Assembly (NCBI GenBank): GCA_963745075.1
Contig: CAVUWV010000036.1
Location: 32,001-96,000 of the forward strand
Origin: Candidatus Hydrogenedentota bacterium
Lineage (GTDB): Bacteria; Hydrogenedentota; Hydrogenedentia; Hydrogenedentales; SLHB01
Direction of reading: 5' to 3'
DNA length: 64,000 bases
Positions within the stretch are counted from its first letter, which is position 1; every line of letters begins with the position of its first letter. The notes beneath the pieces were generated by a model, which saw nothing but the letters and a program-made list of their open reading frames with translations, ran no database searches and had not been told where the DNA came from. The translations under genes were made by a program, and so were the position numbers. Of the stretch, positions 4,280 to 22,935 are shown in pieces.

Positions 4280-4639
4280 CTACGGCTCGTCGCGCTTTTC
4301 CGCTACCCGTCGGCCAAGTTCCGACACGAATTCGTCCTCGCCGAGGGTCGTGCGGTAGAGCTTGTGCCGTTCCGCGAAATGGGTGCGTGTGATTTCCCCA
4401 AAGTCCACGATTGCGCGCACCATCACCGCGAAGAAGAAGATGAACAACAACGATAACAAGAACGCGAACTGCCGGGGATTGTCCCGCACGTGGACGATCT
4501 GGAGTCCGAGCAACAGCACAACAATGATCGCCAAGAGCAGATAGAAGCTGAACGGCCGCGAACGGTTCGCGTCCTTCCAGGCCTTGCGGAAATGCATGCC
4601 CAGCGTCTTTGCTTCCTTGATCCGGTCGTCGTTACCCAT
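4280..4639 (-). CDS. Small hypothetical membrane protein (2 TM)
   Basis: 119-aa ORF with two hydrophobic segments, in the same-strand gene run. Confidence 0.7.
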   Translation of the reverse strand: MGNDDRIKEAKTLGMHFRKAWKDANRSRPFSFYLLLAIIVVLLLGLQIVHVRDNPRQFAFLLSLLFIFFFAVMVRAIVDFGEITRTHFAERHKLYRTTLGEDEFVSELGRRVAEKRDEP

Positions 4640-4658
4640 GGAAGTTTCCGTCGATGAT

Positions 4659-4835
4659 TAAATTCAAAATCCGAATATCGAAACACGAAACAAATCCAAA
4701 ACTCGAATGATCCAGACAATTGCTCGCGATGGAATACACCCTACACGAAATCGGAACGTCCCCTGCCGTTTTGGTCATTTCCCCACTGGGTCACTCGAAT
4801 TTGTTTCGGATTTCGTGCTTCGAATTTCAAATTTA
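4659..4835. repeat. Palindromic intergenic element with heptamer-periodic arms (CGAAAyy)
   Basis: Arms 4659-4700 and 4795-4835 are imperfect inverted repeats; a related element lies at 37201-37368. Confidence 0.75.
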
Positions 4836-4870
4836 GTTCCGTGCTTCCAACATCAATTCGTAGTCGCCCC

Positions 4871-5095
4871 CTAATTAAGCGGGCATCCGCCACCCTGAAG
4901 CTGGCAGCACGACGACGCGCCGCAGCCCGCAGGCATGTCCCCGCGTGACGGGCCGCCCGACAGGGCCGCGAAAGCGCTCGCCTGTTTTACCAGCTTCTTC
5001 GACCCGCACGACGGGCATTCCGGGACGGTTTCACCGCGGACGAGGATCTCGTTTTCCGCGTGACAATCCTTACATTCAAACACGAACAACGGCAT
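4871..5095 (-). CDS. FmdB-family zinc-ribbon protein
   Basis: MPLFVFECKDC...CPSCGS pattern and Cys-rich tail. Confidence 0.85.
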   Translation of the reverse strand: MPLFVFECKDCHAENEILVRGETVPECPSCGSKKLVKQASAFAALSGGPSRGDMPAGCGASSCCQLQGGGCPLN

Positions 5096-5212
5096 TGCAA
5101 CACTCCACGCCGCAGTACCTTGCGGCAAAAAGACCTACCCCCCAAATGATACCAGACAATGGCGGGGTTCACAACGTTTACGGCCGCGAACGGCCACACA
5201 GCTTGGAATTGC

Positions 5213-5542
5213 CTACTGTAAAAAGACGATAGTCAGCAACAGGTTGGAATCCTCCTTGGCTCGAAGGGCATGAGGCTCGTTCGGCGCGAGATGGATGAGC
5301 TGTCCCGCTTTCAAGGTTTCCGATTTCCCCATAGTGTCGATTTCAATGGTCCCGGAAAGACAGTGAATGACAACCGGCGCGGCGACTTGGTGTTGATCGA
5401 TGGTCTTACCGGCCGAGAGCGCCATCCGAATCAGCTCCATATTGTCCGTTTTCACGACCGCTTTCGTCCCGCCCGAGGGTAAGTCGTCTCCCCAAGTGTC
5501 CAGGTCCACGACCTCGCCCGGGGCCGCATGATGCAATGCCAT
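5213..5542 (-). CDS. Cupin domain protein
   Basis: HQVAAPVVIHCLSG...PNEPHALRA cupin motifs; RBS ggagg. Confidence 0.85.
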   Translation of the reverse strand: MALHHAAPGEVVDLDTWGDDLPSGGTKAVVKTDNMELIRMALSAGKTIDQHQVAAPVVIHCLSGTIEIDTMGKSETLKAGQLIHLAPNEPHALRAKEDSNLLLTIVFLQ

Positions 5543-5725
5543 TGGTCACCTCCCGTTCGTTCGAACTTTTACGTCCTTGCCCGAGTGCTTGCGCCCTCCT
5601 GCTATCGTAACAGGTTGTGGCCGTCCAAGCTTCCATCAGCCGTAGAATTCCCGGAATCGCGCAGTATTCCGCCGTTCATATGGGCGCGCCGGACGAGGGA
5701 CGGGGTGGAGGACTTTGCCTTTGGA

Positions 5726-5741
5726 CCACTATATGTAGGAT
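5726..5741. promoter_or_regulatory. NrdR-box-like motif (second copy)
   Basis: CCACTATATGTAGGAT resembles the NrdR consensus acaCwAtATaTwGtg. Confidence 0.4.
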
Positions 5742-5881
5742 CGGAGATTGTTGCACGCGGTTTACCACAATGGCGCGGATGGCCCGTATGGCATCAATTT
5801 ATAGGGGCAATGTCACATCAAGACACATTTTATGCGAATTTCCGGGATCGGGAATTTTTTTGAAAAACACACTTGACCCTA

Positions 5882-5910
5882 TTGACAACCCCTATATGTT
5901 GTGGTAAACT
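5882..5910 (+). promoter_or_regulatory. Near-consensus sigma70 promoter with extended -10; NrdR-box-like motif in its spacer (5889-5904)
   Basis: TTGACA(5882-5887)-17 nt-TAAACT(5905-5910), TG at 5902-5903; spacer contains CCCCTATATGTTGTGG. Confidence 0.75.
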
Positions 5911-5916
5911 CGCTTC

Positions 5917-6114
5917 AGTGTCTGGAGCCAAACGTGTGGATCTGGTCACGACTTCATCGCACCGTGAAGTCATTCCGCAGCCCAGGCCATATAGGATCCA
6001 CACAAGACGCGAGCTGTCTGAGGCCAACGACCGCAGCCCAATGGTTTCAGAAGATGTACGCTCGAGACCGTGACCCTCTTGCGCCAAGATACACGGAACA
6101 CGGTTTCAGGCACT
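5917..6114 (+). ncRNA. Candidate structured non-coding RNA (~200 nt), family unassigned
   Basis: 5' end 5917-5929 pairs with 3' end 6102-6114; three internal hairpins; repeated CCGCAGCCCA; strong promoter directly upstream, hairpin downstream, no credible ORF. Confidence 0.65.
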
Positions 6115-6123
6115 CCCCGCACT

Positions 6124-6163
6124 GAGCGGCGGGTTCCCAAGGCCCGCCGCTCCCTCCATTTTT
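6124..6163 (+). terminator. Terminator-like GC hairpin
   Basis: gagcggcggg(6124-6133)/cccgccgctc(6143-6152); T5 at 6159-6163 is offset by 6 nt; may also serve the convergent gene. Confidence 0.6.
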
Positions 6164-6232
6164 CAGCCAAGAAGCCCACATGGTCAGAATTCATCGGTTA
6201 ACCGAGTGCAAGCGGAGGCGCCATGCTGCGTC

Positions 6233-8542
6233 TTACCGGCCGAAGATATCCGGGCCGGGGGGGAAGGAATCGTAGGGGCCCGCGGAAAAGCTGAGGATGT
6301 CGGCGAAATTCGGGAGGGCGGGGTCGCTGCGCTGGATGCGCCATTCGCCTTCCTGGTTGGTGAAGGTGAGCCAGACTTCCCCACGCTCCGTGCGGGGGAA
6401 CCACGCCGTTTGCCCGGCAAAGCGGCCGGTCGGGTCGCTGATCGCGGCGCCCGTGAACCGGCAATACAGTAAGACGCGGACTTCCCCCTTCGCGTCGTAA
6501 TCGGCGAAGTCCCATTTCCGAAGTTGGCGCGTCATCTTGCAGGCCGAGTACCGTTCGAAAAACCATTGGTACGCCCGTTTCGCGTACTGGAACTGCCACC
6601 ACTGGGGATCGCGGTAGTCGGTGCCGTAGAGGTCCATGACCCCGTCGAGATTCTCGTTGGTGAAGTCGTCGTCCCACTGCTCGATGCGGGCAATGACTTT
6701 TTTGGCGACATCGCGATGGTCGTCGCTGACGCCTTCATAGGTGGGCCACCATGCCTGAGACTCGGGCAGGATACTCATGGGACCTTCGAGGGGGCGGCTC
6801 TGGGCTTGGGCAACCAGATCCGTCAGCACGACTTCTTCATCGATCCGGCTTTCCACCCAACTGAACGCCAGATAGTCGCCGAAATTCACGGTCCCTTCGT
6901 AGGGTTCTCGTTCGTTGGTCAATGCCGTCACGGCATACGCGACGGACTGGGCGGGGTCCACGGACGGGTCGGTCCAGCTTCGCTCGTCGATATTCTTGGC
7001 GACCTCTGTATACTCGCCCGTCGGGTACAACCGCTTGAAGACGTTGTACGACACGTCTCCCTCGCGGAACGGCCACGTCAACGTCACGGTCGTGTCGCGC
7101 CGCTCCGCGTGAACGTCGCGAACGGGCGCCGGGAGCGACGGAATAACAAAAGTCTGTTTCTCGTAGTGGCTCTCGCGCGTGTTCATGACAAACACGCCGC
7201 GTCCGGCCCGCACGATGAAGGCGGAACCCGACCCATCCGGGCCGAGATACTGGTCCAGCAATTCCGTCCAACCCTGGGCCGAAGGCACACTTGCCGGTCT
7301 TACAATTCGGGGCAAGGCCCCGAGCACGTCGGACGGCGCATAGGGTGACATGATAGGCACCCAATAATGACGGCCTGAATTCGGGATAAGTTCCACGATC
7401 TGGCCGGGGCGTTCCATGCCGTAGGCGCCTTTGAGCATAAGCCCCTCATCCCGCACGCCGTCGAGATCGCGCAGGTTGAGCTGGAACTCCTGCGGTGTGC
7501 GCGAAACGCCCAATTGATAGGCCACCCGGATCTTCTCCGCCACGAATTTCTTGTCGGCGATCAACCCGTCCGCGGCAATCTGCCGCAAAACGGGCAAGAT
7601 CGCTTTCGCCCAGTACTGCACGCGGTCCCCGGTCCAGAGATCGCGGTCTTCTGGAAAGGAATAGGCGCAGGCGCCGCCCGACGCGCCGTTTAATACCATG
7701 GCCCGGTACAACGACGGCGGCATCCCCGGTCCGTCGGCCGCGATGCCAAACTCGCCGGGTTCAACCAGGCCGGCGTGCACGTACCATTGCGATGTGGGGG
7801 CGACACCCCACTGTGCGACCGCGCCCTCCAACCACAAGCCCATAAGCGCACCCTGTTGTGCGATGGTCGATCCTTGATCGTGCCCCACCAGTGGGACCAC
7901 GTACGCGCTGCACGCGCGAAACGTATCGAGCAGGGGGCGGCACTGCGCGTTAGCCATCACGTGCAGCCACCCCGTGCCGTCCAGCCGGACTGCGACGAAC
8001 CGGCCGTAACTCGCTGCCAAGTTGGTCGCGCCCGACAGCCACCCTACGTTCGGCGGCATCGCGATGTCATCACCGCCACTGAACGCGTAATACTCGTCAA
8101 ATGCGAGATCGGTGACGTTGATTCCCTTGACGCACGTGAATTGGGCCACCAAATCTTCCAGCAGGTTAAGCGGATAAACTCGCTGCGGATTGGCGTCCGC
8201 AACGTGGACCACCGTGGGGATTTCCGCGTTTTGCAGCGCTTTGAGCAGGTTCGTAAACCGCAGATGGCGCGATTCCGCGTCGGAACCCTGCATGTCGACG
8301 ACGAGCGTTGCGTAGGGTTTCATCCCGTTGGGCAGAGACGCCCACGCGCCGATCACGCGTTGGGTATACACCTCCGTATCGCCCGAACCGCTACCCGGCG
8401 CTTGGAAAAGGAAGAGCGGGTGATAGGCGCTGATCTCTACCGTCAATGGAGGGTAACTCTCTGCACTAACGGTACTTATCGTCAACACAAGAACAAGACA
8501 CACCCCCGCTGCCCGAACGATGAAATCCTTCAAAACCGTCAT
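6233..8542 (-). CDS. Secreted protein with a GH98-like domain, an FN3-like segment and a C-terminal NTF2/SnoaL-like domain
   Basis: Signal peptide (VCLVLVLTISTVSA); YHPLFLFQ, GALMGLWLEGAVAQWG..QWY and IPNSGRHYWVP resemble GH98 segments; LTWP...YNVFKR...YAVTA is FN3-like. Confidence 0.55.
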   Translation of the reverse strand: MTVLKDFIVRAAGVCLVLVLTISTVSAESYPPLTVEISAYHPLFLFQAPGSGSGDTEVYTQRVIGAWASLPNGMKPYATLVVDMQGSDAESRHLRFTNLLKALQNAEIPTVVHVADANPQRVYPLNLLEDLVAQFTCVKGINVTDLAFDEYYAFSGGDDIAMPPNVGWLSGATNLAASYGRFVAVRLDGTGWLHVMANAQCRPLLDTFRACSAYVVPLVGHDQGSTIAQQGALMGLWLEGAVAQWGVAPTSQWYVHAGLVEPGEFGIAADGPGMPPSLYRAMVLNGASGGACAYSFPEDRDLWTGDRVQYWAKAILPVLRQIAADGLIADKKFVAEKIRVAYQLGVSRTPQEFQLNLRDLDGVRDEGLMLKGAYGMERPGQIVELIPNSGRHYWVPIMSPYAPSDVLGALPRIVRPASVPSAQGWTELLDQYLGPDGSGSAFIVRAGRGVFVMNTRESHYEKQTFVIPSLPAPVRDVHAERRDTTVTLTWPFREGDVSYNVFKRLYPTGEYTEVAKNIDERSWTDPSVDPAQSVAYAVTALTNEREPYEGTVNFGDYLAFSWVESRIDEEVVLTDLVAQAQSRPLEGPMSILPESQAWWPTYEGVSDDHRDVAKKVIARIEQWDDDFTNENLDGVMDLYGTDYRDPQWWQFQYAKRAYQWFFERYSACKMTRQLRKWDFADYDAKGEVRVLLYCRFTGAAISDPTGRFAGQTAWFPRTERGEVWLTFTNQEGEWRIQRSDPALPNFADILSFSAGPYDSFPPGPDIFGR

Positions 8543-8812
8543 ATACCGAATTGTATGCAACCTGCTAATCACTTCACAAGTGGACTGTATACGCCGTTCC
8601 GAATGCCGAGGCGCCGATCCATGGGGCGGTCGTTCCACCTAAGGTAAATGTCCGAAACCATTGAAAAAGATGCAGTTGAAACATCGTTTTGCGCGTTTGT
8701 AAGCCGTTTGTTGGGTCGAACCAACCTTGAATCATCCCGCAACCCTCTACTACAATGCGCCCTTCCTACTCGTCTTTTCTCGCACTCCAACTGACGGAGA
8801 CGTTCGATCAAC

Positions 8813-20551: not shown

Positions 20552-20628
20552 TCAGCATGCGTGGGGGGCCCGCCTCACAAGGCTGACGGCGCACGCTGCA
20601 GTTTCCGAATGACTTGGGGTGCGAGTGT

Positions 20629-22935
20629 ATGCTGAATTGGCGTAAAGACAAATCAGAAGAGGATTCTTTGGGGAAGGCCCAAGGGGCCGCCGCGCCTCCA
20701 GCATCACCATCATCCCAACCAAGTTCCGTTACCGGTCCCCCGCCATCGCGACCGCGCGTGAACGCGGGTCGGCTGGGCGAAATCCTGGTCAAAGAAGGGG
20801 TCGTCACACCGGGACAACTGGAGGAGGCGCTCCAGCAACAAAGCGGAAACGGAAGGTTCCTCGGCCAAGTCTTGGTCGAGTTGGGTTTCATCACCCAGGC
20901 GACCCTGGTGTCTTTCCTGGTCAAGCAGTGCAAGATTCCGCACATCAGCCTTGTTGACTACGTGGTCAGCGAAGATCTGTTCAAGCTGGTTCCGAAGGAA
21001 CTTTGCCTGAAACACAATTTGCTTCCCATTGATAAACTGGGGCGGATCCTGACCCTGGCCATGGTGGATCCTTTGGACGTGGAAGCGCTGGAAGAGGTCC
21101 GCAAGTCCTGTCCGGATATCAAAATCAAACCGATTCTTTGTGACTGGAACCACTTCGACAGCGTTGCGCGGAAGGTCTTTCACACGGAGGCGCGGGAAAT
21201 CCAGGAAGTCACCGCCGGGAGTTTCGGGCTTTCCGAACAGAAATCCCGCCCCAAGCCCAAAGAGCCCGACAAACAGGAACGGACCGCGGTGGATGCGGCG
21301 GTGGACGCCCTCGTCAAAGAGGCCGCAGCAACCGTCAAACGGGAGGCCAAGGCGCCTCCAAGAGCCGATGGCGGAAGCCAAAAGGCAGTCGAGTCCAGTC
21401 GGCCGGTGAAACCAGCACCGCCGTCTGCTCCGGCCACACCGGTTGAAGCCGCCGACAGTCAAGTGACGGATAGCATCCGGGCGGTGTTGCACGAGGCGTT
21501 GGCGCCCTTGCTGGCCGCCAGCGCGCGAACGGACGCACCGCCATGGGACGCCAAGGCGTTTCAATCCGGCATTCGCGATTCCCTGCAAGAGGTCATTGCA
21601 CCCCTGCTGGCCGAGCAACAGAAGCTGTCCGCAGCCCGGTCCTCGGACAGTACGCCGCCGCCGGACCCCAAAATGTGGGCGGGGCAAGTCAGCCAGGAGT
21701 TGCGGGACTCGGTATTGGCGGGGCTTGACACCATGCTTCGAGCGCAGCGCGACGAGTCGCCGCGCGGCGCGGCCATGCCGCAACCGGATGAACTGGCCCG
21801 GTTGATTCAAGGCAGCGTCGAGAAACCGCTGGCGGAGCTTGCCAGGGGCATCCACGATGCCTTGCAGGAGCGGGGGGAACAGGGTTCGAGCATCTCGCCG
21901 GAACTCTCGTCCCTTATTGGCGAGAACGTACGCAGTGTGGTCGCCGAACAAGAGAAGCGCTTGGCCGAGATGACCGAGGTGATGGTCAAGACGACGCAGG
22001 CCGCTGAAGCGGCCTTGAGAGCGATCCAGGAGGAGCGCGCACAGACCCAAGGAGCCGTCGAAAACACCACGCGTATCGCCAACCTCGAAATCTTTCCCGG
22101 TACCAGCGAAATTTCGACCGGACAATTGTCGGACGCCGGCGCGCTGGATAGTCCCGGCCTCGGCATGGAATCGGACGAGCGCGTCCGGGAAGCGGTGGAC
22201 AGCGACCGGATTTTGAACGGCTACACGTTTGACGAGTTTCTGGTCGGTCCCGCGAACACCTTCACGCTGAAAGCGGCGCGCGCGCTGGGCGAGCAACTGA
22301 CGCTGGATTTCAACCCCTTGTATGTCTGCGGAGACGAGGGTCTGGGAAAGACGCATCTGCTCAACGCGGTGGGTAATGCGTTGCTCGGGCGAAATCCCGA
22401 TTTGCGGGTGGCGTATGTGTCCACCAGCCACTTTGCCGGCGCCTTTGCGACGGCGCTGAAACACGACGAGCTTTCGGAGTTTCGGGATCGGTTTTGCCGG
22501 TGGGACGTGCTGCTGATTGACGACATCCAGTTCCTTGCCGGACGGACCGAGGCGCAGGAGGAGTTGTTTCACATTTTCAATGCCCTGGTCCATGAGGGCC
22601 GGGTTGTGGTTATCGCGGGTGACCGTTCCCCGGACAAGCTTCCGGAGTTCCAGAAGGGACTTGCGTCCCGGTTCTCGTCGGGGATCGTCACGAAATTACG
22701 GCCACCGGAGATGGATGTGCGTCTGGCCATTTTGAAGCGTTATGCCGAAATGCACCGGGTAGCCGTGCCGGAGGAGATCCTGTCGCTGGTCGCGACCCGG
22801 ATCGCCACGGACGTCCGCAAAATGCGGGGGGCGTTGCGAAAAGTCATCGCATATGCCAAACTTGTCGAGCAAGACATTACGCGCGAGATGGCTAACGAGG
22901 TACTGGATAGCCTCGGTGCCGATGACGCCGCGTAG
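20629..22935 (+). CDS. Fusion protein: MshEN/T2SSE-N domain + long linker + DnaA/Hda-type AAA+ domain (no DnaA domain IV)
   Basis: RLGEILVKEGVVTPGQLEEALQQQ MshEN motif; YTFDEFLVG..N, NPLYVCGDEGLGKTHLL, DVLLIDDIQFL, QEELFHIFN, LASRF, DVRKMRGAL; stop right after domain IIIb. Confidence 0.85.
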   Translation: MLNWRKDKSEEDSLGKAQGAAAPPASPSSQPSSVTGPPPSRPRVNAGRLGEILVKEGVVTPGQLEEALQQQSGNGRFLGQVLVELGFITQATLVSFLVKQCKIPHISLVDYVVSEDLFKLVPKELCLKHNLLPIDKLGRILTLAMVDPLDVEALEEVRKSCPDIKIKPILCDWNHFDSVARKVFHTEAREIQEVTAGSFGLSEQKSRPKPKEPDKQERTAVDAAVDALVKEAAATVKREAKAPPRADGGSQKAVESSRPVKPAPPSAPATPVEAADSQVTDSIRAVLHEALAPLLAASARTDAPPWDAKAFQSGIRDSLQEVIAPLLAEQQKLSAARSSDSTPPPDPKMWAGQVSQELRDSVLAGLDTMLRAQRDESPRGAAMPQPDELARLIQGSVEKPLAELARGIHDALQERGEQGSSISPELSSLIGENVRSVVAEQEKRLAEMTEVMVKTTQAAEAALRAIQEERAQTQGAVENTTRIANLEIFPGTSEISTGQLSDAGALDSPGLGMESDERVREAVDSDRILNGYTFDEFLVGPANTFTLKAARALGEQLTLDFNPLYVCGDEGLGKTHLLNAVGNALLGRNPDLRVAYVSTSHFAGAFATALKHDELSEFRDRFCRWDVLLIDDIQFLAGRTEAQEELFHIFNALVHEGRVVVIAGDRSPDKLPEFQKGLASRFSSGIVTKLRPPEMDVRLAILKRYAEMHRVAVPEEILSLVATRIATDVRKMRGALRKVIAYAKLVEQDITREMANEVLDSLGADDAA

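Follow-up and report, generated by a model that had tools for sequence, protein, structure and literature searches.

An order-wide structured RNA gene of Hydrogenedentales with exposed C-rich loop words and an NrdR-type box in its promoter

A stand-alone structured non-coding RNA gene is located at about 5917-6163 on the + strand of the window analysed here, a 64,000-nucleotide (nt) stretch of contig CAVUWV010000036.1 from a Candidatus Hydrogenedentota genome (hereafter G000; other G-, C- and L-numbers denote the genomes, contigs and loci compared), and comparison with its homologs indicates that the gene is real and apparently undescribed. Judged by sequence comparison, the evidence covers the gene itself, its fold, a repeated word exposed in its loops, its independence of neighbouring genes, and a promoter box common to nrd genes, thyX, nrdR and mraZ. 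We tentatively propose that this stand-alone RNA is repressed by the regulator NrdR and may titrate a protein that binds C-rich RNA.

The fold provides the first line of evidence. The initial annotation, made from the window alone, had proposed three arms on a long closing stem, and all stems and motifs that it claimed were found where it had placed them. The closing stem P1 pairs 5917-5929 with 6102-6114 and encloses arm 1 (5934-6003; outer pairs 5934-5942/5995-6003, inner hairpin 5950-5956/5965-5971, and an unpaired CCGCAGCCCA at 5975-5984), arm 2 (6010-6064; pairs 6010-6014/6060-6064 and 6017-6026/6042-6051, with the second copy of CCGCAGCCCA in the terminal loop at 6031-6040, as annotated) and arm 3 (6068-6096; a short stem 6068-6072/6092-6096 with a conserved CCCUCUUGCGCC loop at 6074-6085), all on the + strand. 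When 5917-6163 was folded, the z score was -4.5 for the + strand (0 of 200 shuffles as stable) and -1.0 for the - strand; the region 5917-6114, which excludes the 3' hairpin, gave a z score of -3.5 and a predicted fold equal to the annotated three-arm fold, and the + strand folded better than the - strand in 21 of the 23 homologs tested. When 29 close homologs were aligned by sequence only, two-sided change was seen at 38 of the 68 proposed pairs and 89.9% of cells were paired, a level reached by 0 of 500 shuffles and compared with 31-43% for slid partners; kinship inflates the shuffle controls of this alignment, and the pair-counting measures are stricter. Fitting 62 homologs to the covariance model built from 29 homologs (model R1) raised the count to 55 of 63 pairs, a figure that leans to the model.

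Support was distributed over most helices. P1 had 95% of cells paired and two-sided change at 7 of 13 pairs among the 29 homologs, was supported in both the close and the wider alignments, and formed in 66 of 69 single-sequence folds (these 69 homologs are a subset of the DNA-search and model R1 matches, chosen to cover genera). Two-sided change was seen at 9/9 outer and 6/7 inner pairs of arm 1, at 11/14 pairs of arm 2, and at 5/9 pairs of the 3' hairpin (99.6% paired), while the stem of arm 3 (98% paired) was nearly invariant in close homologs and changed on both sides at 3 of 5 pairs in the wider set. An additional inner helix that the initial annotation had drawn in arm 3 (tcttg/caaga) did not survive, with 0/5 pairs two-sided and with 7 of 29 sequences unable to form one of its pairs. 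Its alternative rod fold fared little better: the three helices specific to the rod were 69-76% paired with two-sided change at 3/17 pairs, versus 73-98% and 26/39 pairs in the branched fold, counting its arm helices except the inner helix of arm 3. Compensatory changes thus back the multibranch fold as the structure predicted for this RNA and do not back the rod.

The borders of the gene are also recognizable. A promoter scan detected a sigma-70-type promoter at 5882-5910 (TTGACA-17-TG.TAAACT, 10/12) on the + strand, whose -35 hexamer TTGACA (5882-5887) is present in all 30 aligned close homologs and whose extended -10 element (TG followed by TAAACT, 5902-5910) is conserved as TG.TA...T; the start at 5917 is predicted. 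Downstream of P1, a C-rich linker containing CCCCGCA (6115-6123, +) is conserved as single-stranded, with a mean unpaired probability of 0.84, and is kept in long and short forms of the RNA. It is followed by a 12-pair hairpin (6124-6152, +) with a CCCAA loop and by a C-rich and U-rich tail, the U-tract marking the end of the gene; 6124-6163 is probably an intrinsic terminator that is conserved in sequence as well, and at least 4 T are found among the last 11 nt in 60 of 69 homologs. The two neighbouring genes are outside the element: a divergent gene for a cupin protein (5213-5542, -; PF07883) and a convergent gene for a GH98-like protein (6233-8638, -; weak PF08306 match). Among 30 loci the flanking frames vary in size and orientation and the downstream genes are often convergent, and therefore the element does not serve a neighbour. 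No conserved same-strand downstream gene, as expected of a cis-acting leader or riboswitch, was found at these 30 loci, the gene in the window being convergent. A small-protein reading was also rejected, since the homologs have no common frame and a frame of at least 10 codons led by a ribosome site occurs in only 13/69.

These data bear on the view that no functional RNA is made here, and that the conservation reflects a promoter and a terminator combined with an element acting at DNA level, or else the leader of an adjacent gene. Evidence for transcription does rest on contigs from RNA libraries, one of which includes the promoter and may be DNA (see below), but the compensatory and G-U changes, the strand bias of folding, the variable and often convergent downstream genes and the scarcity of ribosome-site-led frames make this explanation highly improbable. 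The annotated idea of a stand-alone, trans-acting structured RNA is borne out by order-wide conservation with variable neighbours, by compensatory changes and by the folding bias of the + strand.

The search for homologs yielded conserved copies in nearly the whole order. A DNA search gave matches in 47 of 61 related genomes, and model R1 matched 115 of the 135 genomes of the phylum (115/133 inside the order, 0/2 outside), with a single match in 111 of the 115 positive genomes; a second covariance model added G042 among 10 re-tested negatives. By scanning one genome per prokaryotic species for the arm 3 pattern, 102 stretches were obtained, and among the 80 of these that were examined, the RNA was found in 36 (107-258 bits). 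According to their titles, 29 of the 36 belong to Ca. Hydrogenedentota or its lower ranks, 3 to Nitrospiraceae, and 4 have a broad label or none; the three Nitrospiraceae-titled matches score like close family members, and their labels are therefore probably off. A metagenome pattern scan added 11 full-length matches among 80 loci examined. No match was found in the phages and plasmids searched, or in viral contigs with one promoter pattern. The 29 genomes behind non-matching loci of the arm 3 pattern scan and the 2 phylum genomes outside the order contained no full-length match, only two matches at 21-26 bits, of which the one inspected was a bare terminator-like hairpin. A promoter pattern run on 5 genomes found nothing, not even in G042, which holds the RNA, and this pattern is therefore too strict to show absence.

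Homologs range from 150 to 258 nt, and their arms are rearranged relative to each other. Long forms (families f1, f3 and f6; 38/69) contain arm 1, and short forms (31/69; 150-193 nt) lack it; what the forms share is the closing stem, the C-rich linker, the 3' hairpin and one or more copies of AGCCC. A truncated form at L552 (G043:C43:27244-27345) has a single hairpin besides the C-rich linker and the 3' hairpin, and no promoter or AGCCC loop was seen in the 108 nt before the stretch ends. In family f11 (L195, L197-L199 and L201-L203), UGCGCC pairs as the stem that closes the AGCCC loop, while it has its own loop in other families.

With regard to expression, 23 of 24 listed RNA runs share part of 5700-6300, all of them less than half of its words. 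Four runs, which had been found through this stretch, were aligned to 5600-6500 (X1, X2, X4 and X5); the other 19 of the 23 are not counted as evidence. In X1 a single 174-nt contig, 99% alike, covers 5949-6119; X5 has a contig at 5947-6118 and X4 three contigs within 5927-6159; the contigs of these three runs, from three studies, lie inside the gene and leave its flanks untouched. In X2, one contig includes the promoter and another lies in the neighbouring gene, and X2 may therefore hold DNA. We consider it very likely that the gene is transcribed.

Comparison with known RNA families did not identify the RNA. At the gathering threshold, Rfam 15 had no match over 4500-7500, where the best score (17 bits, E 4.6) was a match of Xoo2 to the 3' hairpin that we took as chance; on 14 divergent homolog loci, only a neighbouring tRNA reached the threshold. 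The initial annotation had named a divergent 6S RNA as the principal known alternative. The RNA resembles 6S RNA (RF00013) in its length, closing stem and single copy, but differs in the absence of a family match (no RF00013 match over 4500-7500 at E up to 10), in its branched fold and in the existence of a canonical 6S gene elsewhere in G000 (G000:C21:117505-117690, 61.7 bits). A broader version of this alternative is that the gene encodes a second RNA-polymerase-binding RNA (6S-like or Ms1-like) whose sequence likeness to known families has been lost. Such an RNA could well have a length of 150-260 nt, a long closing stem, a single copy, near-universal presence in the order and frequent occurrence in RNA libraries; considering the canonical 6S gene, the multibranch fold with an unsupported rod, and the lack of Rfam matches for the window stretch and the 14 divergent homologs, we regard it as improbable. 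Repeated loop words are not a feature of 6S RNA either. A signal recognition particle (SRP)-like reading of GGUCA...GCAGCC was rejected, the SRP RNA being located at G000:C8:30781-30881 (60.4 bits), as was identity with transfer-messenger RNA (tmRNA), which was also found elsewhere in G000. The literature searched, which comprised neither subscription journals nor supplements and included excerpts of PMC4898720, contained no report of this RNA or of any NrdR-controlled non-coding RNA; motif catalogues or tables of NrdR boxes in supplements could list it.

The second line of evidence is the exposed word. The duplicated 10-mer reported by the initial annotation is a real repeat (any repeated 10-mer arises in 19 of 2000 dinucleotide shuffles), but what is conserved is shorter. 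AGCCC is present in 69/69 homologs (142 copies, 1-3 per RNA), is invariant in all 31 short forms, and has a mean unpaired probability of 0.78, compared with 0.42 for other 5-mers with four G/C. The 9-nt CCGCAGCCC occurs twice in most f1 members and once in most other families; of the 12 family groups examined, 9 retain it and three (f11, f13 and f4) lack it. Flanks and host hairpins of AGCCC differ between families, as might be expected of a word read by a protein. The loop of arm 3 carries TTGCGCC in 52/69 homologs. Elsewhere in the window, CCGCAGCCCG at 4920-4929 (+) is one base off the duplicated word; it is situated in a gene for an FmdB-like zinc-ribbon protein (- strand) and is probably due to chance.

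The third line of evidence is the promoter, where the initial annotation had missed a palindromic box. The 16-base-pair (bp) spacer palindrome between -35 and -10, found in nearly all homologs, forms in the window an NrdR-type box at 5889-5904 (unstranded, 15.4 bits, fixed position) that we take to resemble the published NrdR consensus letters. A second such box lies 163 bp upstream of it (5726-5741, unstranded, 12.8 bits), and a weak one 97 bp upstream (5792-5807, unstranded, 5.8 bits), offsets of 94-99 bp recurring in homologs. With a matrix made from the RNA spacer boxes, the site before the class I ribonucleotide reductase (RNR) gene ranked second in G000, and nrdR and thyX-nrd were matched too. 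Because circularity was to be avoided, a palindrome was also derived from the regions upstream of 29 thyX and 4 RNR genes alone (consensus ACACAATATATTGTGT). When this independent motif was applied to 69 RNA promoters, the spacer box exceeded 10 bits in 64 and sat at a fixed position; the genome background is 1.6e-5 per position. The regulator itself is encoded in 30/30 genomes (in G000 at C10:362557-363006, TIGR00244 with 201.9 bits, cut-off 124.65), and a box precedes nrdR in 24 of the 30, in 33-bp pairs in 5; as a control, boxes precede 1.5% of G000 genes and 2.1% of the genes whose upstream gap is long. Boxes of thyX form 31-32-bp pairs in several genomes. A box about 140-240 nt upstream of mraZ, the head of the division and cell wall cluster, was detected in 24/30 genomes, with 41-42-bp pairs in 6 (G000:C15:3750 and L320-L349), whereas 0/30 dnaA and 1/30 ftsZ upstream regions had one. 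In G000, the only genome considered for these genes, boxes were also seen before ftsK (two boxes), mreB, murC, an amidase gene and fliQ. Within 250 nt upstream of the RNA, an extra box scoring above 10 bits is present in 43 of 69 homologs (none in the downstream control), and the upstream boxes pair among themselves at 41-46 bp in 21/69. Two RNR upstream regions (L242 and L243, from G051 and G039) had no box within 520 nt; their leader resembles, by eye, a cobalamin riboswitch.

According to excerpts of PMC9110341 and PMC12051234, 16-bp palindromes over RNR promoters bind NrdR loaded with dATP/ATP. As in the NrdR regulons of E. coli, P. aeruginosa, S. coelicolor, Listeria and Streptococcus, the palindrome found here covers a core promoter, and the box of the RNA promoter is common to the RNR, thyX-nrd and nrdR promoters of the same genomes. 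Unlike those regulons, whose tested members are RNR operons (and nrdR) with boxes in pairs, the target here would be a non-coding RNA, the spacer box mostly has no partner at 31-43 bp, and the mraZ cluster is boxed as well. Control of the RNA gene by NrdR is likely in our view, but the canonical partner box is missing.

If so, the sigma-70 promoter of this putatively trans-acting RNA would be shut by NrdR when dATP is plentiful and, as established NrdR biochemistry would lead one to expect, the RNA would rise together with RNR and thymidylate synthase when DNA precursors are low. Its long closing stem holds two or three hairpins on which one to three copies of the short word (C)AGCCC(A) and related C-rich loops are exposed, and the RNA may then bind and titrate a protein that binds single-stranded RNA, in the manner of CsrB or RsmY with another word and another protein. 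Like CsrB/CsrC and RsmY/RsmZ, the RNA is stand-alone, presents a repeated short word on loops, varies in copy number and hairpin layout, and ends in a terminator hairpin; looped repeats, variable copy number and layout, and a terminator are traits of the Csr/Rsm families. It differs from them in its word (AGCCC rather than GGA), in having only 1-3 copies, in its long closing stem and in its NrdR-type promoter box. CsrA is encoded in G000. Counting unpaired GGA gave 0 in 61/69 homologs, 1 in 7 and 2 in 1, and this lack rules out a Csr-type sponge. Four stand-alone RRM proteins were found in G000 and are no more than candidate partners; an RRM protein of Bacteroides binds single-stranded parts of small RNAs (excerpts of PMC11697453).

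Several observations weigh against this proposal, and the first of them concern the promoter. Partners of the spacer box that score above 5 bits occur at 31-33 bp in only 2/69 homologs and at 41-43 bp in 4/69, and the offsets of the extra boxes have no significant helical phase relative to the spacer box (p about 0.2). Tight binding of NrdR needs two boxes 31-33 or 41-43 bp apart (PMC12051234, in part), and according to 10.1101/2025.03.28.645925, single-box genes of E. coli and P. aeruginosa are unresponsive to nrdR loss, with only RNR operons responding. The RNA-library contigs, a weak hint of expression, carry no strand, ends or DNA control. As for titration, the partner protein is putative only. 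CAGCCCA hairpin loops are not enriched in the intergenic DNA of G000 (4/157, with 0-8 of 125-199 for permuted words), which leaves such a protein without visible natural targets among mRNAs. No Hfq was found in G000, which is 89.7% complete, so that its absence is not established. The 9-nt CCGCAGCCC is also longer than what one small RNA-binding domain usually reads.

The promoter observations could mean that the RNA is real but that a different regulator, of cell-cycle type, recognizes its palindrome, or that NrdR does so too weakly to be of consequence; the regulon would then be one of division or growth phase rather than deoxynucleotide sensing. The spacer box without a canonical partner would fit this, as would the many top G000 sites before envelope, division and flagellar genes, which lie outside the NrdR regulons tested in 10.1101/2025.03.28.645925 (in part). 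However, de novo learning on DNA upstream of thyX and RNR genes recovers the same motif, the box occurs at nrdR in 24/30 genomes (33-bp pairs in 5), pairs also occur at mraZ (41-42 bp in 6) and thyX (31-32 bp), and in 21/69 homologs the boxes upstream of the RNA gene form pairs spaced 41-46 bp apart. We therefore regard another regulator, or NrdR in too weak a role, as quite unlikely.

A different alternative keeps the gene and its control and replaces titration by pairing: the RNA could be an Hfq-independent base-pairing small RNA, using C-rich loop seeds on G-rich sites of replication or division mRNAs in the manner of EcpR1 or CcnA of Alphaproteobacteria. Its large unpaired C-rich loops are conserved, a 9-10-nt word is kept in most families together with a second conserved loop word, and GC-rich or CCCC loop seeds act on dnaA, gcrA and ctrA in other bacteria (excerpts of PMC4414408 and PMC8959179). 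EcpR1 of Sinorhizobium likewise has a conserved GC-rich unpaired loop (UCCGCCGCAUCU in EcpR1, UUCCGCAGCCCA here), is Hfq-independent and is tied to replication control, but it has two hairpins and validated dnaA/gcrA targets (PMC4414408, in part), whereas the present RNA is multibranched, belongs to another phylum and shows dnaA complementarity only as a weak, post hoc signal. CcnA of Caulobacter, an RNA of about 180 nt, also has C-rich loops and a promoter box of a replication-linked regulator, but lies at the origin under CtrA, whereas the present gene has no fixed location and an NrdR-type box (PMC8959179, in part). The RNA may thus work, by analogy, like a decoy of the Csr/Rsm type or like a loop-seed RNA of the EcpR1/CcnA type, and it is a member of neither.

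Tests for pairing targets covered one whole genome (G000) and a few orthologous genes. The genome search for targets of the loop word found its complement unenriched near G000 starts. Upstream of the ribosome site, the complement of the 9-mer had 174 matches versus 241 for the reversed control (54 genomes), and in early coding sequence 161 versus 202 (30 genomes), so that both counts fall below the control; the genes matched differ, and the only recurring matches fall on Gly-Cys-Gly codons at the start of oxidoreductase genes. When 4836 G000 start regions were scanned with weighting by accessibility, genes unrelated in function came out on top (19 annotated). When each RNA was compared with the start regions of its cognate mraZ, nrdR and thyX, the median p was 0.54-0.58, and ftsZ had no shared pairing site by eye. 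GGGCTG targets in the RNR, thyX and nrdD leaders of G000 were not conserved in relatives, and only scattered 5-6-nt matches were found to tRNA, tmRNA, 6S, SRP and RNase P RNAs. The one weak lead is the arm 3 loop, which complements early dnaA codons in some genomes (Stouffer Z 2.3-2.5 with realistic synonymous-codon controls in 26 genomes, and 3.4 with uniform codon use), while the AGCCC loops gave a Z of about 1 with realistic codon use. This lead was first seen by eye, the kin are not independent and several genomes with an invariant loop lack the match, so the early coding sequence of dnaA is a weak, post hoc candidate target. On these grounds pairing as the mode of action seems possible, if doubtful. 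We narrowly favour titration: the core is short, its flanks, copy number and host hairpins vary, and no target is visible; that the RNA acts by protein titration rather than base pairing is about an even matter, and the initial annotation had likewise named both a protein sponge and a seed RNA.

Some further observations concern replication genes. Canonical dnaA was not found in G000 and is present in 30/30 relatives, probably reflecting an assembly gap. The window encodes at 20614-22935 (+), directly before pilB-/pilT-like genes, a 773-aa protein with an MshE-type domain binding cyclic di-GMP (65 bits, cut-off 38) and an ATPase domain like that of DnaA (279 bits, which does not reach the DnaA cut-off). 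Another such ATPase domain forms the N-terminus of a long coiled-coil protein at G000:C8:302145 onward (L399:2146-4101). Two NrdR-type boxes (G000:C10:407553 and 407842) flank an AT-rich stretch just downstream of dnaN, a possible replication origin with words that we take to be DnaA-box-like.

The RNA adds an order-wide structured family to a phylum without described regulatory RNAs in the literature searched. Should NrdR control the RNA, the view that it regulates only ribonucleotide reductases, as expressed in 10.1101/2025.03.28.645925, would fail, and its action through lone or widely spaced boxes would become directly testable. A more speculative and rather unlikely extension is that NrdR serves as a cell-cycle regulator in Hydrogenedentales, acting on RNR, thyX, the mraZ cluster and the RNA, and that the RNA, as the post-transcriptional arm, passes the dATP/ATP state to replication or division via a C-rich-RNA-binding protein or the dnaA message. 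If this held, no earlier non-coding RNA would be known under NrdR control, and nucleotide pools would be linked to the cell cycle in a new way. The conserved box of the mraZ cluster in itself suggests a route from DNA-precursor supply to cell division.
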